A DNA stretch of 64,000 bases from a virus, in the IMG/VR virus record IMGVR_UViG_3300028920_000037, positions 76,496 to 140,495 of that record; one strand, 5' to 3'. The notes under the pieces were generated by a model. It did not search any database. It was not told the origin of the DNA and saw only the letters and a list, made by a program, of their open reading frames with translations. This document shows positions 13,822 to 24,506 of this stretch, piece by piece (position 1 is the stretch's first letter; each line of letters opens with the position of its first letter). The position numbers were made by a program, and so were the translations under genes.

Positions 13822-14256
13822 GTGCAGATGATATCAAACGAAAAAGAACCTCCTCACACCCTTCGGGCGTGCGAGAACCATCCAACAGTACAGAAGATCA
13901 ACAAGCTCTGTGAAGTCGCTCAAGAGCTCGGTGTCTACGTTCAGTTCTTTGGGCACCGTACGTTTGTTACTGACAAAGAATTTCCTGGTCGCCTTTACGA
14001 TATCAGCGACATTGGGAATTCAGACGAAGCGATCAGCGATTTCCCACCTCAGCTTGACTACAAGCTTACGTTTGAGAATCCAAAGTGGACGAACTGGAAC
14101 AATGAAAATAACGCTCGCCGCGAAAAAGAACGTAGACAGGCTGAGGCTGAGGAGCGACGCGTTCGCGAGGAAGAAGAACGTCAAAAGGCACGAGCTCTCG
14201 AAGAGCGTGAGCGGCAAGAACTCGCTCGTCTGAAGGAGAAGTATAGAGATGAGTAG
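13822..14256 (+). CDS. Hypothetical protein with charged coiled-coil tail
   Basis: E/R-rich C-terminus. Confidence 0.65.
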   Translation: MQMISNEKEPPHTLRACENHPTVQKINKLCEVAQELGVYVQFFGHRTFVTDKEFPGRLYDISDIGNSDEAISDFPPQLDYKLTFENPKWTNWNNENNARREKERRQAEAEERRVREEEERQKARALEERERQELARLKEKYRDE

Positions 14257-14746
14257 CATGAAGCACAAGTTCAGGTTTCCTGTCGGTGACTGGTCGGGTG
14301 ACGGTCATGGTAAGTGTGAATGGTTTCAAGTTCGAAGCAACCAACCTGTCGAGAAATGGCGTGAGGCGTACTTTGCATCATTGATCAAATTCAATGAACA
14401 CGACATCGCACCTGATAGTCACCACAATGGCAGGAAGGATAGAGGCTGGCCTCTGCACAAGATGCGTGAGCTCGTTGGTTTCAAATTTCCAAATACCGAT
14501 TATGACTGGCAGTATGACCAGCAAAGGGGAGAAAAGATCGAAGTCATACAAGATATTCCAAGGGTTGGATTTCCGGATCCGAAGGACGCCGTAGGGTACA
14601 CGCTCGCGTTCTGCCAGGCGTCTGATTCGTCGCTGAAGTTCGAGATCATTGAAAAAGAAACTGAGATGTTTCAGTTCTACGGTTTCGACGAGCAGGAAAG
14701 GCACATCGGTCACATCGGTTACGAAATCTTCATGGATGGTTGGTGA
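14249..14746 (+). CDS. Hypothetical protein
   Basis: 'GDWSGDGHG' start, 'IGY' end. Confidence 0.7.
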   Translation: MSSMKHKFRFPVGDWSGDGHGKCEWFQVRSNQPVEKWREAYFASLIKFNEHDIAPDSHHNGRKDRGWPLHKMRELVGFKFPNTDYDWQYDQQRGEKIEVIQDIPRVGFPDPKDAVGYTLAFCQASDSSLKFEIIEKETEMFQFYGFDEQERHIGHIGYEIFMDGW

Positions 14747-14815
14747 TGAATTCCGTGTCATATGCGTGTACAATCGTCAGTCCACAGGAGATATTGAAGA
14801 TCTGCGGAGGTACAC

Positions 14816-15037
14816 ATGAAAGCAACGGCTGAATTCACGATCATCGAGCTAGAGCCAGGTACGTATTTTTCAGGATACGTCGGTACGTTGCCTCTTACGA
14901 TTGAGTGGGCAAGCGTCGGTAACCCGCTGCTTGCGACAAGAGCACAACCAGGGTCGCTCGATGCTATTAAGGAAATGTTTCCGCATGCAAGGTACATGAG
15001 GGTCGAGGCAACCGCAGAGTGCGAGTACTATGAGTGA
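14816..15037 (+). CDS. Hypothetical protein
   Basis: SD ggagg; coupled to dnaE. Confidence 0.55.
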   Translation: MKATAEFTIIELEPGTYFSGYVGTLPLTIEWASVGNPLLATRAQPGSLDAIKEMFPHARYMRVEATAECEYYE

Positions 15038-17297
15038 GAAAACAATCAAGCGTGGTGCTCGAGTTGTCGATCCTGAATGCGTTTTACCGAAACGATTTGT
15101 TTCGCTTCATAACCATAGTGGATTTTCCACATATGATGGTTTGGGACCTCCGGAAGCTCACTTTGATTTTTGTATGGAAAATGGCTTAGATGCTCATGCC
15201 ATTACGGATCATGGCCATATGAATGGGTATGCAGCATCTCAATTGTACTATGAGAAGCTTAAGGATCAAGGGAGAGATTTTAAGTTCATACCTGGATGTG
15301 AATTTTATGTCCATCCTGACCTCGATGACTGGGCTCGCTACAGAGCACAGGAAGAGCAGAACAAGGAAGAGCGCAAGAAGGCTGAGCGTGCTGCGAGGAA
15401 ACGTGGTGATGCTCCTGATAACGATGTTGACAATGCAAATGCATTGACAGTTGAGAACGAAGAGGCGTCTAAGACCAATAAGTACCGTGACCCATTGAAG
15501 CGCCGCCATCACCTTGTGGTGCTGCCTAAGAACACAGCAGGCCTCAAGAAAATCTTTTCACTGGTCTCCTATGGCTACTTGGATGGGTTTTATCGGTTCC
15601 CTAGGATTGACATCAAGAGGATAAAGGCTGTCGCAGATGATGACATCATCCTCTCGTCGGCATGCATCGGTGGGCCCCTAGCATACGAGATCTTCGGTGT
15701 ATTTGCAGACGCACAGTGGGATGAGATGGGCCCACACCTGCTCAACGACTCATCGAACTACGAAAAGGTGATGCGTGCCCTGGGCAACGCACACGACATG
15801 TACGCTGACTCTGTGGGTGTTCACAACATGTTCCTCGAGCTGCAGTTCAACAAGATGCCACAGCAGGACCTAGTAAACCTAGCGCTGCTCAGATACGCAG
15901 TCGCAAACGGCATACAGGATCAGCTCATCGTCACATGCGACGCCCACTATCCAGGACCAGACCTCTGGCGTCAGAGGATCATGTACAAGAAGCTTGGGTA
16001 CCTGAACTACACAGAGATCGATCCGTCGGCGATCCCTAAGTCGAAGGACGAGCTCGAGTGTGAACTCTATCCCAAAAATGCCCAGCAGCTCTGGGAGGAG
16101 TATGTGGGTTGTAAGGCTAGGTCGTCCGAGTACGAGGCGATCGAGGGCATCGATGAGATCGTCTGTGCCGCCGTAGAGCGTACGTACGACATCGCTCATA
16201 CTGTCATAGACGAGCTTCCTCCAGACAGAGAGGCAAAGTTTCCTCACATCAGTGCAGAGGGTGATAAGCCATTCAACTACCTCGTTCAGATGTGCAAGAA
16301 GGGCTTGAAGAAGCGTGGACACGCCCACAAGCTCGAATATGTTGATCGCCTAAAGGAAGAGCTCGGGGTCATGAAGGAGCTCGGAGTCTCGAGGTACTTC
16401 AACACCCTTGCTGTCGTCATGCAGCTTGCACGTACGAAGGTGCTTACGGGACCGTGCAGAGGATCTGGTGGTGGTTCGCTCGTGAACTACTGCCTGTACA
16501 TCACGGATGTCGATCCGATCAAGTACGACCTGTACTTCTCGAGGTTCATGTCGGTGTACCGAAAGGGTATGCCTGACGTTGACATCGACATCGATGATCG
16601 CGATACTGTCCTTGACCTGTTGCGCAGCGAGTTTGGCTACACAAACGTCGTTCCGATCTCAAACTATAACCTCTTGAAGCTCAAGAGCCTGACAAAGGAT
16701 GTGTGCAAGTTCTTTGGCGTGCCGTTCGAAGAGGTGAATGCCGCGATGCGTACCGTCGAGGACGACGTCAGGAAGTCGACCCTCAAGGAAGGCGACGACA
16801 AAAACCTGTTTCAGCTGACGTTTGACGAGGCGATGGAACATTCGCCGAGTTATCGCGAGTTCATCGAAAAGCTTGCCGAAGACTTCCCAGAGGCCGTGGA
16901 GTCAATCCAGGCGCTCTATAAAGAACAACGTTCGCTCGGACGCCATGCGGGTGGAGTCCTTGTTGTTGACGATCTGCGAGACAAGATGCCTCTCATTACC
17001 TCGGGTGGCGAACCACAGTCGCCGTGGGTCGAAGGCATGGCCGTAAAACATTTAGAAAAAATTGGTAATTTCATCAAATACGATTTATTGGGTCTACTTA
17101 CTCTTCGTTTGATTAGGCGAACAATTGAATTAGTGCTTGAGAAACAGGTTCGAATTGATATTGACGGTCAAACGTTGTTTCTTGCGCCCGAGGAAAAGGT
17201 CGAACTTACAGCAGGCATGTTCAAAAAAGCCAAAGATATCATAGAAGGTGATGAAATTGACGACGATTGGCTCAGAACTTACACAGAAGGTGCTTGA
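15030..17297 (+). CDS. dnaE: DNA polymerase III alpha, fragment 1 (PHP + palm/thumb)
   Basis: SLHNHS..S..DG, ITDHG, GCEFY, CRGSGGGSLV, MPDVDIDID, RHAGG, KYDLLGL; ends with about 49 non-DnaE residues. Confidence 0.95.
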   Translation: MSEKTIKRGARVVDPECVLPKRFVSLHNHSGFSTYDGLGPPEAHFDFCMENGLDAHAITDHGHMNGYAASQLYYEKLKDQGRDFKFIPGCEFYVHPDLDDWARYRAQEEQNKEERKKAERAARKRGDAPDNDVDNANALTVENEEASKTNKYRDPLKRRHHLVVLPKNTAGLKKIFSLVSYGYLDGFYRFPRIDIKRIKAVADDDIILSSACIGGPLAYEIFGVFADAQWDEMGPHLLNDSSNYEKVMRALGNAHDMYADSVGVHNMFLELQFNKMPQQDLVNLALLRYAVANGIQDQLIVTCDAHYPGPDLWRQRIMYKKLGYLNYTEIDPSAIPKSKDELECELYPKNAQQLWEEYVGCKARSSEYEAIEGIDEIVCAAVERTYDIAHTVIDELPPDREAKFPHISAEGDKPFNYLVQMCKKGLKKRGHAHKLEYVDRLKEELGVMKELGVSRYFNTLAVVMQLARTKVLTGPCRGSGGGSLVNYCLYITDVDPIKYDLYFSRFMSVYRKGMPDVDIDIDDRDTVLDLLRSEFGYTNVVPISNYNLLKLKSLTKDVCKFFGVPFEEVNAAMRTVEDDVRKSTLKEGDDKNLFQLTFDEAMEHSPSYREFIEKLAEDFPEAVESIQALYKEQRSLGRHAGGVLVVDDLRDKMPLITSGGEPQSPWVEGMAVKHLEKIGNFIKYDLLGLLTLRLIRRTIELVLEKQVRIDIDGQTLFLAPEEKVELTAGMFKKAKDIIEGDEIDDDWLRTYTEGA

Positions 17298-19212
17298 CGC
17301 CTCTACACGGCACACATCTGCAAACGCGATCGCCCGCGAGCTTGGAACGTCTGCATATAAGGTGCGAAGGGTCCTGAGCGATAATAACGTAACGCTTAAG
17401 CAGCACATCGATCCAAACGCGATTCCAGAACACGAACATGAGCATGTTGTTGAACTACTTCGTGGTGGTATGTCGCGTGTTGACGTTGCAAAGAGGTTCA
17501 ATTCGACCATCAATGCCGTCAAAAAGGTACAAGATACCACGGGGTTTCGCAAACGTGCCGTAAGTCAGCCCAAGCGTTCCAATCACCTCGACGGCAAAGA
17601 ACGCCAGATTATTGTGATGTATGAGTCTGGTTGTTCCGTCAATGAGATCGTCACCGCGCTTACAACGACAAAGACGTTTTTGAGACACAAGTTTCAAGAG
17701 CTTGGCATTATGCCATCGGAACGTCGAAAAAGAAAGGCCTTGACGAAGGCGGAGATGCTGGAATGTATCTCCCTTCGTTTGACCACCAAGGAGTCAATCA
17801 AAAGGTTGAAGACTACTCCAGCGGTGTTTCGCAAGTTCAGAAAGAAGTACGAGTTGTCATTTAGATACGATCTTGCGCCTAAGGGCGAGGACTTAGATCG
17901 TCTTATTGCGTTGTTCAAACTTGGTAAAACTGCGCATGAAATTGCTGTTGAGATTTCATCGACTCCATCCTTGGTTACACGAGCCGCACGTCAGCAAGGA
18001 TTGATTTTTCGTGATCGTGTCAAGCAGAGGAAGATCATTCCAGAACATAGGATCAAAGATTTTAAACGCTTGTTCGAACGTGGGGATACAAAGCAACAGC
18101 TCGCAACCACGTTTAAAACGACGACATATGTTGTCAATGCGACTGTTGCCCACATTGGACTGTCATTTGATGCTCGTGATGTACAGATTGCGCGTAACAA
18201 CGCAGTTGAGCGCATAAACACGTTCGAACATTTAAACGTCATTGATGCGTCAGCATACAGGACGATGTACGGCCTCGACATACACGTTGAGTGTCTCAAA
18301 TGTGGCCATAAATGGTGGGACTGCTACAATACGCTTCGAAATGGATTCTGTAGAGGGTGTTCTGTTAGGAGCAAACCGGAACTGGAAATATCACAGTTCA
18401 TCGATTCGATCGAAGGTATCTCTGTCGTTCGAAACACTCGAACGATCATTTCACCGCTCGAACTCGATGTCTATGTACCTGAACTTAAGCTTGCTGTTGA
18501 GTTCAACGGGATATACTGGCATTCTGAAAAGGCAGGTACACCAAATAACTACCACGATCAAAAGATGCGTCGATGTCTAGAAAAAGGCATCATGCTTCTG
18601 CAATTTTTTGAAGATGAATGGTGGCACAAGCGTAACATTGTTGAAAGCATGATTATGCATCGTTTGGGGCGCTCAACGCGACGCGTGTTTGCAAGAAAGA
18701 CCAGTGTAGTTGAAGTTCATAGCAAACAAAGGCAGGAGTTTTTTGCTCGAAATCACATAGATGGAGACGTCCCAGCAACAAAGGCGTGGGGGCTTGAATT
18801 AGATGGTGAACTCGTATCTGTGATCAGCGTGCGGCAGCCAAAACACAAGAAATACAATAACGCGATTGAAATCGCACGTTTTGCGTCAGTGTTGGGAACC
18901 GTCGTACCCGGTGCGCTCGGCAGGTTGATGGTGCGTGTTTGTGAATTTTCTAATGACATGAACATTTCACAGATTGTTACATATGTCGATCTACGCCACG
19001 GTACAGGTAGGGGATACGAAGGCGTTGGATTTAGGCTCGATCATCTGACACCACCCAGATTTTGGTGGACAGACTTCAAACAACGCTATGATAGGTTCAA
19101 GTTCAAGGCAGACAAGGAGAATAATCTGACGCAGGAACAGGTCGCTAAGACCGCTGGAGTATGGCGAATTTTTGGTTGTTCGAATGCTTTGTATATCATG
19201 GATGTGCGCTAG
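17248..19212 (+). CDS. Free-standing Hef-like homing endonuclease with multiple N-terminal HTH repeats
   Basis: HTH repeats (AIARELG, DVAKRFN, EIAVEI), CLKCGH..CRGC, ELDVYVPELKLAVEFNGIYWH, C-terminal 'VFARK..NHIDG..EIARF..YVDLR..GY..GF' domain. Confidence 0.8.
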   Translation: MMKLTTIGSELTQKVLDASTRHTSANAIARELGTSAYKVRRVLSDNNVTLKQHIDPNAIPEHEHEHVVELLRGGMSRVDVAKRFNSTINAVKKVQDTTGFRKRAVSQPKRSNHLDGKERQIIVMYESGCSVNEIVTALTTTKTFLRHKFQELGIMPSERRKRKALTKAEMLECISLRLTTKESIKRLKTTPAVFRKFRKKYELSFRYDLAPKGEDLDRLIALFKLGKTAHEIAVEISSTPSLVTRAARQQGLIFRDRVKQRKIIPEHRIKDFKRLFERGDTKQQLATTFKTTTYVVNATVAHIGLSFDARDVQIARNNAVERINTFEHLNVIDASAYRTMYGLDIHVECLKCGHKWWDCYNTLRNGFCRGCSVRSKPELEISQFIDSIEGISVVRNTRTIISPLELDVYVPELKLAVEFNGIYWHSEKAGTPNNYHDQKMRRCLEKGIMLLQFFEDEWWHKRNIVESMIMHRLGRSTRRVFARKTSVVEVHSKQRQEFFARNHIDGDVPATKAWGLELDGELVSVISVRQPKHKKYNNAIEIARFASVLGTVVPGALGRLMVRVCEFSNDMNISQIVTYVDLRHGTGRGYEGVGFRLDHLTPPRFWWTDFKQRYDRFKFKADKENNLTQEQVAKTAGVWRIFGCSNALYIMDVR

Positions 19213-19252
19213 TTAAAATAACACTGTGTGATATACCCCCAATCAGGAACGT

Positions 19253-19912
19253 TTGATGATCATACCGAGTGGAAAGAAGCACGTTGTCTGGGCACGTATA
19301 GCAAAGACGGGTTCTATGTCAACAGAAAGAACGCTCACTGCATTGGGTGTGTTTATGCCACTGCGAAACGTGCTTCGTCGCCGAGAGGCGTACAAACCAA
19401 ACAAGCACATCCTTGTCGTTGATGACCTTGGAAAGCTAGCTGACGTCGGCGTGAACGTTGACGATTGCTTCATCTTTACGATCGTTCGATCGCCTTACTC
19501 ACGTGCGATGTCAGCGTGGTGTGGACACACCTTCTTCAAGGAAAAGAACAGGGACAACTTTGCCGACTGCATCAGGAACCCTCCCCAGCGTCCAGACAAG
19601 GGCTACAGAGAGCTTGGGAACAAGAAGGAAAAGGCTATCGAGGGCGCATGGAGACATTTCACAAAAACGATGTCGCAGTCGACGTCAATAGACGGTGCCT
19701 TACGCGTTGACAGGATCATCAAGCTCGAGGACTACAAGAACGGGCTGACTGCGGTGCTCGAAGAGCTAGGATTCAAGAAGATCAAGTTCTTCAAGGAGAA
19801 CAAGAGTCGCTTTCGCAAGAAGCGTGACCTGAAGCCGGAAGAGATCAGGCTCATCAATGCAAACTATTCTGAAGACTTCGACAATTTCAAATACGAAAAG
19901 AAAGAGGGCTGA
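19253..19912 (+). CDS. Sulfotransferase family 2-like protein
   Basis: RIAKTGSMS (5'-PAPS-binding-like), FTIVRSPYSRAMSAW, terminal YSEDF..FKY. Confidence 0.78.
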   Translation: MMIIPSGKKHVVWARIAKTGSMSTERTLTALGVFMPLRNVLRRREAYKPNKHILVVDDLGKLADVGVNVDDCFIFTIVRSPYSRAMSAWCGHTFFKEKNRDNFADCIRNPPQRPDKGYRELGNKKEKAIEGAWRHFTKTMSQSTSIDGALRVDRIIKLEDYKNGLTAVLEELGFKKIKFFKENKSRFRKKRDLKPEEIRLINANYSEDFDNFKYEKKEG

Positions 19913-20167
19913 CTGCATTGTACCCGGTGACATCGTCGGCGATGAAGATGTCACCGTTGGTCCTCGCTTGTTCCTTGTGCTTTCAGTCGTGCCACGTATG
20001 TGGATGATCGATTTTACCGTGTTGAACCCTTTGGGTGGAACGCAGATATGCTGTTCAACGCCTTACAAAGGACACAAAGTCCTTTAGGGACTTACCCAAC
20101 ATTCCAGTTGCATACAACGCAACGCCTCAGCTGCTCAGTGGAACGTACATTACTGAAGATTAACACA

Positions 20168-20196
20168 GTGTAGATCGTGCCGTCGTATTGTAGGAT
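20168..20196 (+). promoter_or_regulatory. Sigma70-like promoter for dnaE fragment 2, leaderless
   Basis: GTGTAG-17 nt-TAGGAT, then 6 nt to ATG 20203. Confidence 0.6.
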
Positions 20197-20202
20197 AAAC
20201 AC

Positions 20203-21129
20203 ATGGCTCTAGTAAAAGCTGTCAGGACGAGTACGCCCGACTTTCCTGAGATCCAGACGTTCTACAACGAACACCTTCATCCAGATGTGATCGACTTTGA
20301 AGACCAAGACGTCTACAAGTATGTTTTTCACGGCGGACGTTGGGCTGGCATCTTTCAGGCAACACAGAGGCCGACACAGAACTTCTTCGTCCAGTGCAAG
20401 CCGACGACCGTAACAGACCTTGCAGCGATCACATCAATCTGGCGTCCGGGTCCACTCGCCGGCAAGATGCACGAGCTGTACGTCGATGCAAAGTTCAACA
20501 AACCGTACGATTGGGGACATCCACTCCTGAACGAGACACTGGCAGATACGTACGGTCTCTTGATCTTTCAGGAGCAGATCATGCTCCTTGCAAACAAGGT
20601 TGCTGGGTATGACATGGCCCAATGTGACCAGGTCCGCCGCGCAATCCTAAAGCGCTCTCTCGCGACAGGTGAAGCAGCAAAAAAGGAGGCAGCTGAGCTC
20701 GAGGAGAGCTTTACGGACGGCTGCGTGAAGAACGGTGTGCCCCTCACCGTTGCAAAGAAGCTCTATCAAAACATCCTTGCTTGGGGTGGGTACGGTTTCA
20801 ATAAAAGTCTGTGTAGAGAGGATATGGTGATAGTTAATAACTATGAAACCAAACAACTCGATCAAGTTATTCCTGGCGACCAAGTCCTTACCCGAGACGA
20901 AGAGAGCGGACAAAACGTTTATACAGAGGTGCAAGAAGTCCATGACCATGGTACGCTTGAGCTCGTGGAGGTTGAACTAGACACAGGAGAAACGATCAGG
21001 TGTACGTTGGATCACAAGTTCAGGACGAAGGAGACGGGAGAGATGCTTCCTCTATGGTTGATAGCGAAGCAGCAGTACAGCATCGTTGTAGACGATGCGG
21101 CAAAGAATTCAAATCAGATATCTGGCTGA
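20203..21129 (+). CDS. dnaE: DNA polymerase III alpha, fragment 2 (fingers) fused to split-intein N half
   Basis: GIFQ, RPGP, TYGLLIFQEQIM, VRRAI, YGFNK followed by intein. Confidence 0.93.
   Translation: MALVKAVRTSTPDFPEIQTFYNEHLHPDVIDFEDQDVYKYVFHGGRWAGIFQATQRPTQNFFVQCKPTTVTDLAAITSIWRPGPLAGKMHELYVDAKFNKPYDWGHPLLNETLADTYGLLIFQEQIMLLANKVAGYDMAQCDQVRRAILKRSLATGEAAKKEAAELEESFTDGCVKNGVPLTVAKKLYQNILAWGGYGFNKSLCREDMVIVNNYETKQLDQVIPGDQVLTRDEESGQNVYTEVQEVHDHGTLELVEVELDTGETIRCTLDHKFRTKETGEMLPLWLIAKQQYSIVVDDAAKNSNQISG
20806..21126 (+). mobile_element. Split intein N-fragment (IntN, 107 aa, Ser1)
   Basis: FNK|SLCREDMV (block A register), PGDQV, block B IRCTLDHKF (TxxH). Confidence 0.88.
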
Positions 21130-22112
21130 ACAAACACGAAGCCAGGTGCAATGAACCCATCTACCTTCCTGAGGAAGAAGGAAAGAAGTGGGTTGCTTGC
21201 AAAATCTGTGGTCACAAAGGCGTTCGCATTGGTAAACACCTGAAATCTGCGCACGGGCTGACGACCAAAGAATACACAGCACAATTCCCAGATGCTTTGA
21301 CGTCAGCGCTCGATGAAATTCAGAAGATGAGTGAGGCGTGCAACTGGATTGATCGTGCCAAAGAAAACGGCGACGATCTCAGCGAGTATCGTCAACGAAT
21401 GGGTGCTGCAGTTTCTCAGTCGATCATGTCAAATCCAGAAGAGCGAGCTCGTCGCTCGGTCCAGATGGCCGTGAACAACCAAACACCTGAAGCTCGTGAA
21501 AAGTCACGTGTTACCGCAAAGAAGACATCTCAGCGTCAAGATATACTTGATCAACGTACACATAATCTTGCAAATTGGCGTGAAAAACATCCTGATGATT
21601 TTGCAAAGTGTACAAACGCGATGTTACAAACTAGTGTTTCATCACCAGAGCTTGAGTTGTTTTACATTATTGATGTTTTATCCTCAATGAAAGTTATTTG
21701 TTGTGATGTGAAACGTCAACAAAGGATTCAAGATGTTAGTTTTACAGCAAGTAAAACACATATGTTTTGTGTTGACATTACCTGCATTTTTCAAAACGTA
21801 TGTGTTCATATTGAGATTGATGGTATCCATCATTTTCAACAAATTGCAAGTTTTGATCTCAACAAACGACAACGACGTGATCAAGAATTTGAAAACTGGA
21901 TCAATGCTCGAAATGATGTGATGCTTGTTCGATTGTCATACGATACGTGGGAAACACGTCGCTGGCAAGAAAACAAAGAAAAGATGAGTAGGACATTTTT
22001 CTCCCAACCTGCTCTCGAGGCCCTCTTCAGCCTTCTCAAGAATCCTAAACCTGGCGTCCACTGTATCGGCCAGGCATACGGTGAAAGGAACCTGCTGTGT
22101 GGAAGCCAATAA
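21054..22112 (+). CDS. Free-standing homing endonuclease (C2H2 fingers + Vsr/DUF559-like PD-(D/E)xK domain)
   Basis: CRRC..HEARC, CKIC..HLKSAH, SSPE..., VDI..IEIDGIHH..RDQE; AT-rich; lies between the intein halves. Confidence 0.8.
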   Translation: MVDSEAAVQHRCRRCGKEFKSDIWLNKHEARCNEPIYLPEEEGKKWVACKICGHKGVRIGKHLKSAHGLTTKEYTAQFPDALTSALDEIQKMSEACNWIDRAKENGDDLSEYRQRMGAAVSQSIMSNPEERARRSVQMAVNNQTPEAREKSRVTAKKTSQRQDILDQRTHNLANWREKHPDDFAKCTNAMLQTSVSSPELELFYIIDVLSSMKVICCDVKRQQRIQDVSFTASKTHMFCVDITCIFQNVCVHIEIDGIHHFQQIASFDLNKRQRRDQEFENWINARNDVMLVRLSYDTWETRRWQENKEKMSRTFFSQPALEALFSLLKNPKPGVHCIGQAYGERNLLCGSQ

Positions 22113-22284
22113 GCTCAATTCCTAGGAAAAAGTGTTTCGTTTTAACGCGACGGATGCACATCATTACAGTAATTCCAGATGCTGACGGTTCATGGTGCAT
22201 TCCAACATCGTCGGGGTGGGAAGAGGTTTCAATTGAAAACGATCTTGCTTGGTCACCGTTTCCTGATATGGAAGAATTTGCATC

Positions 22285-23613
22285 ATGCCTGAGCCTGTTG
22301 ACAAAGAACAGTTGAAGACATTCCTTGGCGCCCTCGGCGAGGCGATCGCAAAGGGTGATTTTCCTGATTCTGACATTGTGAATGACACGTCGTTGTCAGA
22401 GGAAGAATTTGAACGTATTCTAAAAGAACGTGTTGCGGCGAGGTACAACAGACCCCGCAAGAAGCTAACGATTGAAGAGATCGAACTTGCGGTTTTAAAA
22501 GGTCCACAGCCTACAGGTAGGATCGTTTCGATCAGAGAGGTCGGCGAGCATCCTACCCGAGACCTATCTGTGGCGCATCCAGATCATCAGTTCTACCTTG
22601 CAAACGGCGTGTTAACAAGCAACAGCCATGCCACGGGATACGCGATGATCTCGTACCAGTGTGCCTACCTCATGACGTATTACGAGGCGGAATGGCTGTG
22701 TTCATACCTCGAATCGATGAGCGGGAACGAGAACTCTCGCGCAAAGGCATTCGCGGAGGTCAGGTCACTCGGATACAACATCGTTCCGATCGACATCAAT
22801 TCGGCACGTGTAGGGTGGACAAGCATTCTCGGAAAGAAGTTCATGCCCTCGTTCACAACGTGCAAGGGAGTAGGTGCCGCTGCTGTCCAGGAGATCGTCG
22901 AGGCTCGCCCGTACGAGAAGTTCGAAGATGTTCTCTGGGACGACGAAGGAAATTGGCGTCACAGCAAGTTCAACAAGAGGGCGTTCGAGGCGTTGGTAAA
23001 TATCGGAGCGTTTGCGAGCCTCGACTGTGTAGGTGAAGGTAAGCTCTTTGAATCGTACGCCCAGATGCACTGGGTTCTGTTTGGTTCTCACACGGCGAAG
23101 GTCAAGAAGAAGCGCAAAGGCGCTGAGGTCGAAGTGGAGAAGAAGTTCGACCATTTTGCCTGGATCAAACGTAATCCAACAATGGATCCTCACGAAGGTC
23201 GTAGGAACTTCTACGAGCTCATCAGGATGTCAAGCGGACAGATCGAACCTTGGACGCGGAGGGAGTGGGCTCTGAAGAACATCGAGCACTTCGGCTCACT
23301 CGACGTTCGAAGCCTCGTGGAGCCAAGCGTCCTTGAAGTCTTTGAAGAGAAGGGTCTACGTTCAATCGATGAGTACGAGGACGAGGACGTCTACTGGTTT
23401 TGCATTGTCAAGGTCGAAAAGAAGACAACACGGAACGGTAAGAAGTACCTCCTGTTGTACGCCCAAGGACCTGCAGGGAAGGTCTTCAGGATATACGCCT
23501 GGGGGTGGAACGGAAAGCGTATAGTTGACCTCTACGCGGTCTGTTTTGCCGAACTTAAGAAGTCGGACTTTGGGTTCGCAACGAGCATGTACAAGCTGCG
23601 TGAGCTTGAGTAG
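22285..23613 (+). CDS. dnaE: Split-intein C half fused to DNA polymerase III alpha fragment 3 (HhH + OB)
   Basis: ...VLTSN|SHATGYAMISYQCAYL, DINS, KGVG, ALVNIGAF, OB-fold KTTRNGKKY. Confidence 0.93.
   Translation: MPEPVDKEQLKTFLGALGEAIAKGDFPDSDIVNDTSLSEEEFERILKERVAARYNRPRKKLTIEEIELAVLKGPQPTGRIVSIREVGEHPTRDLSVAHPDHQFYLANGVLTSNSHATGYAMISYQCAYLMTYYEAEWLCSYLESMSGNENSRAKAFAEVRSLGYNIVPIDINSARVGWTSILGKKFMPSFTTCKGVGAAAVQEIVEARPYEKFEDVLWDDEGNWRHSKFNKRAFEALVNIGAFASLDCVGEGKLFESYAQMHWVLFGSHTAKVKKKRKGAEVEVEKKFDHFAWIKRNPTMDPHEGRRNFYELIRMSSGQIEPWTRREWALKNIEHFGSLDVRSLVEPSVLEVFEEKGLRSIDEYEDEDVYWFCIVKVEKKTTRNGKKYLLLYAQGPAGKVFRIYAWGWNGKRIVDLYAVCFAELKKSDFGFATSMYKLRELE
22516..22623 (+). mobile_element. Split intein C-fragment (IntC)
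   Basis: GRIVSIREVGEHPTRDLSVAHPDHQFYLANGVLTSN; blocks F/G, terminal Asn, +1 Ser. Confidence 0.92.
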
Positions 23614-23632
23614 GACGATACTTAACTCTGCC

Positions 23633-23878
23633 ATGGCAGACAAGAAGATCGTTAGGCTGACAGAAGGTCAGCTTCGCAACATCATCCGCAAGGTCCTCAA
23701 TGAGGACATCGTACAGTCGAACGACATCATTGACACGATCGATACGATCGAGGATACTGATACGCTCGTTGCAATCAACGACAAGATCAAAGCGAGGTAT
23801 GGGTACCTCATGCGCCTCTCACGTTCGCAGCGCCAAACGTCTCGCAAGCCTCCCCCTCCGCCTCAAAGGCGACGTTGA
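23633..23878 (+). CDS. Small protein with leader 'LTEGQLRNIIRKVLNE'
   Basis: TACTTA at 23619-23624. Confidence 0.72.
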   Translation: MADKKIVRLTEGQLRNIIRKVLNEDIVQSNDIIDTIDTIEDTDTLVAINDKIKARYGYLMRLSRSQRQTSRKPPPPPQRRR

Positions 23879-24177
23879 GCAGGCGGACACGTCAGCACCT
23901 GCTTGACTTCCTGGCGTTTGGACTACCAGGAGTTTTACTCCTGGGTCTGGATGGATACCTTTGGGTTGCGACGAACGCCGATGTCAACGGTCTTGTTGGG
24001 ACGCTCATCTGTTCTTTGGCGTCCATTGGCATCTACTGCCTTGTTCTGCGTCACAGTTTGCAGTGGCGCATATTTAGGCATCATGCAGACAACGATCGGA
24101 AAGATCAGAGGGCTCGTCAGAAAGACGCTGATACTGACAGAGATGAGAGGTCCAACAGGAAACCTCCGCCGCGTTAG
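23875..24177 (+). CDS. Possible small 2-TM membrane protein
   Basis: Two hydrophobic segments and a charged tail; overlaps the next gene by 95 nt. Confidence 0.35.
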   Translation: MSRRTRQHLLDFLAFGLPGVLLLGLDGYLWVATNADVNGLVGTLICSLASIGIYCLVLRHSLQWRIFRHHADNDRKDQRARQKDADTDRDERSNRKPPPR

Positions 24178-24472
24178 GAGCGGCGGCCAGCGGCACAAGA
24201 TCGGAAAGATTGAAGATGAGAACAGGGAGGTTTCGTTCGCTGAAGCCGAGATGTTGTTTCCAGGTTCGACGAACGCATGGGCAGAGATCGTTCCAGAGCT
24301 GTTCCCACAGTTCCCGTTTGACGATCCGTTCTCCATTAAGAGGAATTCCGTTTTCTTCAAGGAAGGAGACGGGTTAACGGTCGCGTTTGCTGACCACCCA
24401 CAGTTCAATCTCGCTACGTGGGATCCAACCAGAGAAGATTGGATCGAAAACGAGCTCGCCGGCACGGGCTGA
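24083..24472 (+). CDS. Hypothetical protein with leader 'IRGLVRKTLILTE'
   Basis: TATTTA at 24071-24076. Confidence 0.7.
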   Translation: MQTTIGKIRGLVRKTLILTEMRGPTGNLRRVRSGGQRHKIGKIEDENREVSFAEAEMLFPGSTNAWAEIVPELFPQFPFDDPFSIKRNSVFFKEGDGLTVAFADHPQFNLATWDPTREDWIENELAGTG

Positions 24473-24480
24473 TGCAAACC

Positions 24481-24506
24481 ACGTCCACTTATTGTAAAGT
24501 GGACGT
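24481..24506. promoter_or_regulatory. Perfect 10-bp inverted repeat overlapping a promoter-like element
   Basis: acgtccactt-attgta-aagtggacgt; ATGCAA-17 nt-TAAAGT then 6 nt to ATG 24507. Confidence 0.55.

Follow-up and report, generated by a model that had tools for sequence, protein, structure and literature searches.

How essential genes survive cutting by selfish endonucleases is an open theme, and it arises twice over in a phage gene for the replicative DNA polymerase, dnaE, which is broken into three pieces: by what means would these pieces become one enzyme? The gene lies in IMG/VR virus record IMGVR_UViG_3300028920_000037, a 140,495-bp sequence of which we analyzed bases 76496-140495 (64,000 nucleotides, hereafter the window). 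Window positions 15030-23613 are filled by six plus-strand open reading frames (ORFs), three of which, called here F1, F2, and F3, are collinear and carry successive DnaE domains, separated by two breaks, junction 1 and junction 2. We propose, as a moderately probable explanation of the whole, that junction 2 would be mended by protein trans-splicing, that junction 1 would be bridged by a docking clasp descended from a dead intein, and that the polymerase would work as two chains.

The division of the PHP/palm, fingers, and helix-hairpin-helix (HhH) parts among separate collinear ORFs, proposed in the initial annotation of this DNA, is borne out by the domain matches in F1, F2, and F3. The parts of the gene are as follows (aa, amino acids).

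15030..17297, plus strand: F1, dnaE fragment 1 (755 aa), with PHP (PF02811), palm (PF07733, E 1.8e-49), and the first fingers helix
17148..17294, plus strand: acidic tail of F1 (49 aa, net charge -7), a putative half-Hint remnant from hhalign, structure prediction, and fold search
20203..21129, plus strand: F2 (308 aa), with PF17657 fingers (E 2.7e-33) and a weak Hint N-part
20203..20232, plus strand: basic head of F2 (MALVKAVRTS), resembling the first C-intein strand, from 82 homologous heads and hhalign
20233..20811, plus strand: F2 extein, the first part of the fingers up to GYGFNK, from PF17657 and the junction motif compared with homologues
20812..21129, plus strand: N-intein (105 aa, Ser1, block B TLDH) and stop codon, from phmmer matches to DnaE inteins
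22285..23613, plus strand: F3 (442 aa), with HHH_6 (PF14579)
22285..22512, plus strand: F3 leader (76 aa) ahead of the C-intein, from leaders in the closest relatives
22513..22623, plus strand: C-intein (37 aa), ending in ..DHQFYLANGVLTSN, from homologues and a weak alignment to the Npu DnaE C-intein
22624..23613, plus strand: F3 extein, comprising Ser+1, the remaining fingers, the HhH region, and the C-terminal part, from PF14579 and NCBIfam DnaE models (about 750-895)

The catalytic motifs PDVDID and KYDLLGL are intact in F1, which is 67% identical to the intact homologue P0002, and F3 aligns to the NCBIfam DnaE models from about position 750 on. Gene callers begin F1 (P0001, 692 aa) at Met64, equivalent to the P0002 start (window 15030-15220); this choice removes the first PHP motif, HNHSGFS, which the ATG at 15030 brings back, and the Pfam PHP match in F1 begins at residue 26.

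At junction 2, Ser1 of the intein directly follows the host motif (..GYGFNK then SLCRED..), in a position where relatives have Ser or Cys. The N-intein matches the halophilic and Npu DnaE inteins 7qil, 2keq, and 4kl5 in phmmer (E 3e-8 to 5e-7), with its block B TLDH opposite their TKDH, and the cyanobacterial split-DnaE models NF007079 and NF005616 match both F2 and F3 through their intein parts. On the other side of the break, F3 reads ..DHQFYLANGVLTSN then SHATGYA, and the ending SN followed by Ser+1 recurs in 110 of 110 F3-type homologues, the penultimate residue being Ser rather than His. Junction 2 thus has a nucleophile as first intein residue, a TxxH motif, blocks F and G, a terminal Asn with a nucleophile at +1, and, between the intein halves, a same-strand free-standing endonuclease ORF. 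Uninterrupted homologues (about 40 full-length proteins) read GYGFNK(S/A)HA.(A/G)YA at this site; because GYGFNK joined to SHATGYA is the homologue sequence, removal of the intein would restore the host sequence exactly. In a relative, L010, the same intein occupies the same site, with a homologous endonuclease between its halves.

Judged by its sequence, junction 2 is a classical “fractured gene” with a trans-splicing split intein, whose splicing activity is predicted because the catalytic residues are intact. The 105-aa N-intein of F2 and the 37-aa C-intein of F3 would associate and trans-splice, giving a chain of about 532 aa with a native GYGFNK-SHATGYA junction, and the 76-aa leader of F3 would leave together with the intein. 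Leaders of 75-91 aa (112-128 residues before Ser+1) are found in the closest relatives, P0242-P0244, and one of about 58 aa in roughly nine other F3-type homologues, while in 83 of the 110 the C-intein stands bare at 37 aa. The leader looks similar by eye to a small ORF upstream of F3 in L010, without statistical significance (E 0.2).

Junction 1 is of another kind. In F1, 49 additional residues and a stop codon follow the last conserved helix (..TIELVLEKQ), and F2 begins with MALVKAVRTS and rejoins the host sequence at TPDF.., where full-length relatives have ..K.G-NP.PTF... No conserved Cys, Ser, or Thr stands at the start of 44 such tails (in the window, ..EKQ followed by VRIDID), no Thr or His occurs in the tail consensus opposite the N-intein CT.DH (APEE in the window), and the heads show no H-N or Asn boundary, running from M-x-K-V-x-S-V straight into the extein P-x-F. 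Lacking a conserved nucleophile, TxxH, and terminal Asn, the module fails as an active intein. The relatives L004, L005, and L011 leave no room for an intron, since F1, the endonuclease, and the piece after it directly adjoin or overlap one another. The L011 contig stops inside F2; in L004 and L005, F2 and F3 form one uninterrupted downstream ORF of about 510 aa, so that junction 1 is their only break and, with the ORFs abutting, a two-chain enzyme is the only reading there. Such an enzyme is the normal state in many relatives. The coexistence of two modes of rejoining in one gene, with a two-chain product, which the initial annotation had put forward, therefore finds support in the hallmarks at junction 2 and the missing splicing residues at junction 1. 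One refinement concerns junction 1, where the non-splicing break appears to be itself a dead split-intein remnant and not an unrelated solution of the Aeh1 type.

The evidence for this origin begins with the tail. A tail of 45-55 aa stands at exactly this site in 44 of 120 F1 homologues, and in two proteins, P0043 and P0107, the junction-1 module is kept in frame inside a longer chain. Aligned by hhalign with N-inteins from another site of the same protein family, the tails gave Prob 96.7 and E 4.2e-10, tail columns 7-45 matching N-intein columns 54-91 of 97, the block-B half, with a score of 52.3 against at most 15.6 in 30 column shuffles. Against the N-inteins of site C the match was weak (E 3e-4, Prob 39). 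MAFFT, unprompted, also aligned F2 proteins to the tail through their site-C N-inteins; this alignment (A2) was discarded and excluded from folding.

The predicted structure points in the same direction. An AlphaFold2 (AF2) model of the natural in-frame fusion (P0043 segment), computed from an alignment that included tails and excluded inteins, gave the insert four to five strands at a predicted local distance difference test (pLDDT) score of 84-90. When this model was compared with 48,161 PDB chains in a fold search performed without Foldseek, places 1-10 were all taken by inteins, the best being residues 51-97 of the Npu DnaE N-intein (Z 4.1, root-mean-square deviation 2.3 Å, 45 residues). 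The AF2 model of the window tail itself (mean pLDDT 76.8, and 82-85 over the strands) had Hint-fold proteins as all of its 22 best matches. What is predicted at junction 1 is only half of a Hint fold, the first 50 or so N-intein residues and blocks F and G being absent. In alignment A3, the three short head rows did not align, and the head region of the model built from it rests on one row.

The head, in turn, resembles the start of a C-intein. The motif M-[AKP]-K-[VI]-x-[SK]-[VI] is common to 82 heads from F2-type homologues, this family's C-inteins begin in the same manner (MAKVKAY.., MSNIKSI..), and hhalign of the heads with site-C C-inteins gave P 1.1e-5 and a score of 21.5, against at most 11.1 in shuffles. 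Tails are acidic (mean charge -3.0, 86% negative) and heads basic (mean charge +1.5, 79% positive), a polarity shared by the halves of natural split inteins, whose first contact is made between the second half of the N-part and the first half of the C-part. From these alignments and models, the junction-1 module is best described as a truncated and catalytically dead remnant of a split intein. The F1 tail would be the C-terminal half of an N-intein, minus block A, the junction nucleophile, and TxxH, and the basic N-terminal strand of F2 would be what remains of the matching C-intein. Pairing like intein halves, by charge-assisted strand addition, the acidic tail and the basic head would fasten F1 onto the spliced F2-F3 chain like a clasp, alongside the contacts that palm and fingers make natively. 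DnaE would in this way be made from three translated pieces, all of them needed, with F1 staying a separate chain in a mature enzyme of two.

The module is not a fixed part of this polymerase family. A tree built from the F1 core of 120 proteins, tail columns left out, requires the tail state to change 29-31 times, with at least 21 changes forced by supported branches. Full-length relatives have neither tail nor head, and the nearest relative, P0002 (on a 324-kb contig), has an intact dnaE of 1143 aa. Two closely related sequences provide a direct comparison of states: L011 has a filled site, with tail, a small GIY-YIG-looking endonuclease, and head, and L012 has an empty one. Their DNA is 95.5% identical up to the site and has no blastn match beyond it, indicating that tail and head arrive with the inserted DNA. 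The endonuclease within the cassette varies, from helix-turn-helix (HTH) plus Vsr-like (window, L004) to NUMOD1-bearing (L005) and GIY-YIG-looking (L011), and the tail family stays constant. The junction-1 cassette of tail, endonuclease, and head travels as a unit from one phage dnaE allele to another. A site-A head and a site-C N-intein occur together in about 45 of 120 F2-type homologues, so that precisely the three-piece layout of the window gene is common in metagenomes. Synteny of relatives, a comparison that the initial annotation had suggested, recovered the junction-1 break in L004, L005, and L011 and the junction-2 intein, with a homologous endonuclease, in L010.

Further arrangements were seen among the relatives. 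P0107 (L006 6001-10996) carries a fused junction-1 module and then a split intein at a third site (..IFQ/C..), of which the N-intein continues in frame into a long C-terminal region resembling a PD-(D/E)XK endonuclease and the C-intein lies on the next ORF. A dnaE in L007 (626-4262) has a fused junction-1 module together with two split inteins (FQ/C and GFNK/C), and in the DNA examined no endonuclease gene was seen between the halves of the FQ/C intein. In L011 (8290-8335), the end of the contig follows shortly after F2 enters an apparent fourth intein site (..KKTY then SCLTGDAKV..).

The two gaps of the window gene hold the following.

17248..19212, plus strand: homing endonuclease 1 (654 aa), with a multi-HTH N-part, a Vsr-like PD-(D/E)XK nuclease, and a C-terminal domain
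19253..19912, plus strand: sulfotransferase-like passenger ORF (219 aa; PF03567, E 2e-12; phrog_3347)
19913..20202, no strand: spacer of 290 nt, with no recognised gene, RNA family, or sigma-70-type promoter
21054..22112, plus strand (alternative GTG start 21000): homing endonuclease 2 (352-370 aa), with a zinc-finger N-part and a Vsr-like core

Endonuclease 1 matches phrog_3339, “homing endonuclease”, with E 5.8e-75, has an orthologue at the same place in L004 (E 1e-38), and over residues 376-457 weakly matches the I-Bth0305I structure 3r3p (E 0.013), from which it differs in its very large size (654 aa), its many HTH repeats, and its extra C-terminal domain. Endonuclease 2 has a counterpart in L010, where an ORF with 39% identity (E 6e-55) lies between the halves of the same intein; its Vsr-like core reads ..VHIEIDGIHH.., and its membership in that family is the weaker of the two, supported by this motif and phrog_559 (E 6e-4) only. 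Both ORFs carry a ..D..(x)..E-x-(D/N)-G-I-x-x-H core, and BLASTP detected no similarity between them (E 0.64). Each break would be kept by its free-standing Vsr-like endonuclease, homing into intact alleles.

A free-standing endonuclease in each gap was also part of the initial annotation and stands; the overlap of its start with the upstream dnaE piece, claimed alongside, is real for the longest ORFs and depends on the start chosen. For endonuclease 1, starts at 17248, 17251, and 17257 (the gene caller's choice) all overlap the end of F1. For endonuclease 2, the early starts overlap F2 and the called start at 21297 does not; the L012 endonuclease also has the zinc-finger part, which is encoded upstream of 21297 in the window, and this favours the early, overlapping start. 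The promoter-like element ascribed to F2 was not confirmed, as a scan for sigma-70-type promoters and terminators found no plus-strand sigma-70-type site upstream of F2 (20203) or F3, with counts barely above those of shuffled sequence. Alignment of the two upstream spacers and a search for recurrent 8-mers returned no shared regulatory motif beyond one 10-mer, ACATCGTCGG, at 19930-19939 (upstream of F2) and 22205-22214 (upstream of F3), the spacers being otherwise dissimilar. In the spacer after the sulfotransferase-like ORF, which is absent from this position in L004, L005, and L011, a small hairpin lies at about 20066-20083, and an in-frame TAG at 20191-20193 closes the F2 frame four codons upstream of its start.

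The sequencing runs that contain the sequence are marine sediment metagenomes. The record is about 39% complete by CheckV, and F2 has an exact copy on a 331-kb contig; both figures suggest that the source is probably a jumbo phage with a genome of some 330-360 kb. A megablast search with the region had zero matches in the phage collection, and tblastn against cultured phages gave a best identity of only about 26%, placing this phage far from cultured ones; a peptide scan of viral_contigs found no relative. As to the assembly, which the initial annotation had wished to see confirmed, a Logan contig of 77 kb (depth 19), produced by a second assembler, has zero differences over 14000-24500. It probably derives from the same sample as the record and is thus an independent assembly rather than independent data. 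Run X2 contained small identical fragments only, at low depth, and its two loose ends are each single contigs.

All three fragments are under purifying selection, the proportion of nonsynonymous differences (pN) against P0002 being 0.21-0.29 (0.21 in F1) and that of synonymous differences (pS) a saturated 0.78-0.87, and decay of the dnaE fragments is unlikely. An intact dnaE elsewhere, which would have spoken for decay in the initial annotation, was not seen: in the 140-kb record, which covers about 39% of the genome, the models for DnaE palm, fingers, and intein each match once, giving a single dnaE, and no family-B polymerase was found. Outside the window, at G000:C1:57713-58330 (L013), a 416-aa frame matches a family-A polymerase at 28 bits, below the cut-off of 34.3, so DnaE may not be the only polymerase-like gene of the phage.

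Several points weigh against the explanation by trans-splicing and clasp. The contact of tail and head is proposed by analogy with intein halves, and the chains might be held by nothing more than their native palm-fingers interface. The Z scores of the fold search are low (at most 4.3) because only about 45 residues were compared, and their weight rests on the uniform identity of the matches; the similarity of heads to C-inteins is short and only moderately significant. Besides, the family-A polymerase-like ORF below cut-off lies elsewhere in the record, and the remaining 60% or so of the genome leaves room for a second dnaE or another polymerase. In an unlikely, though serious, alternative, junction 1 is a plain non-spliced break, the palm-fingers interface holds the chains, and tail and head are inert intein leftovers or read-through. 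Split polymerases and ribonucleotide reductases can indeed work unspliced, as the account in PMC2677866 relates for T4-like gp43 and Aeh1 NrdA. Inert read-through would, however, be expected to decay or shorten, whereas the tail keeps its length of about 45-55 aa, its strand pattern, its Gly and Asp positions, and its acidity in 44 divergent sequences with different endonucleases, is predicted to fold, and is matched by a head motif conserved in 82 sequences; insertion-derived tails in Aeh1 also proved essential (PMC3045599). At the opposite extreme, tail and head might be an unconventional element that still ligates proteins, and both are clearly derived from an intein, but we regard this as highly improbable: the junction has no conserved Cys, Ser, or Thr on its N-side and lacks TxxH, a terminal Asn or Gln, and blocks F and G, the N-part of about 50 aa and C-part of about 10 aa are far below any known Hint domain, and the module remains in frame within the protein in P0043 and P0107.

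Repair of junction 1 at the RNA or translational stage, through a group I or group II intron, a trans-splicing RNA, or ribosomal bypass, would account for the unexplained 290-nt spacer before F2 and would fit with the residence of Vsr-like endonucleases in group I introns too (I-Bth0305I, PMC3239194). Against it stand an Rfam search of 14500-24000 that found no family at E values up to 1, the three ORFs abutting or overlapping in L004, L005, and L011, the conservation of tail and head as protein, and the span of 2.9 kb to be crossed, known bypasses covering tens of bases (PMC2677866); we give such repair hardly any credence. That the three ORFs are a decaying dnaE, with replication left to a host polymerase or one from the unsampled part of the genome, draws on the incompleteness of the record and on the weak family-A match, yet the catalytic motifs are intact, pN is far below pS in all three fragments, about a third of F2-type homologues in many metagenomes have the same layout, and the intein residues are invariant, all of which makes such decay very unlikely. 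An assembly artefact would be a natural suspicion for a metagenomic contig, but the identical 77-kb contig from a second assembler and the same architecture in relatives from other samples and studies reduce it to a negligible risk. Trans-splicing at junction 2 and a dead-intein clasp at junction 1 thus form the reading that we prefer, under which the two-chain product is predicted to be an active polymerase.

In 2009, Dassa et al. described “fractured genes,” in which a free-standing endonuclease, Vsr-like or GIY-YIG, lies between split intein halves, established the Vsr-like enzymes as a family, and listed three metagenomic DnaE loci (PMC2677866). Junction 2 is alike in its N-intein, in the same-strand Vsr-like ORF overlapping the end of that intein, in its C-intein, and in its phage-type dnaE. 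Its catalytic pair is Ser1 and Ser+1 at GYGFNK/SH, and it differs in the 76-aa leader of F3 and in the presence of a second break of another kind in the same gene. With the cyanobacterial split DnaE inteins of Ssp and Npu it shares the host protein and a sequence-related N-intein; there the nucleophiles are Cys, here they are Ser, and the halves, which there occupy separate loci, are neighbours here with an endonuclease gene in the middle. The Ssp/Npu junction we take to be ..AEY/CFNKSH.., which would put the insertion point here about four residues downstream.

For junction 1 the closest counterpart is nrdA of phage Aeh1, split by mobE, where Crona et al. demonstrated in 2011 that insertion-derived tails are essential for assembly (PMC3045599). 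In both cases, an essential gene is cut by a free-standing endonuclease without splicing, and the pieces gain C-terminal and N-terminal tails encoded by the inserted DNA. Here, in contrast, the tails are recognisable as a truncated split intein, belong to a large family at one site, and accompany several types of endonuclease; their function would be that of a clasp. T4-like Aeromonas phages encode the family-B polymerase gp43 in two genes and two working chains (Petrov and Karam, as related in PMC2677866); according to that account, the replicative polymerase is likewise divided between two genes with an endonuclease-bearing insert between them, in a different polymerase family. Junction 2 is therefore an arrangement already known, and what is new lies in junction-1 tails with an identifiable intein origin. 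We know of no report of an intein-derived module for split gp43, and full-text searches of the literature turned up no account of an intein remnant that has lost splicing and connects the pieces of a fractured gene, though this does not prove that none exists. Whether the junction-1 cassette represents an undescribed mobile class, a “non-splicing split intein” driven by a homing endonuclease, rid of all splicing chemistry yet retaining the N-intein part and first C-intein strand through which intein halves recognise each other, clasping rather than ligating, homing through jumbo-phage dnaE, and swapping endonucleases, is in our estimate an evenly balanced question.

As by-products, the locus yields a conserved Ser1/Ser+1 split intein with no cysteine at a catalytic position and more than 100 natural variants, and the small acidic and basic half-Hint pairs might serve as orthogonal non-covalent protein connectors; if the clasp is real, it would be a natural small pair of heterodimerising tags. 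For the biology of these phages, the two known answers to the cutting of essential genes, trans-splicing and insertion-derived assembly tails, occur together in one polymerase, and the locus suggests that they are linked, with tails that descend from an intein stripped of its chemistry and a docking half that was apparently kept. This offers a testable route from a splicing to a non-splicing element and would explain why the junction-1 break is tolerated in many phages. If this holds, the cassette would be an evolutionary bridge between split inteins and tails of the Aeh1 type.

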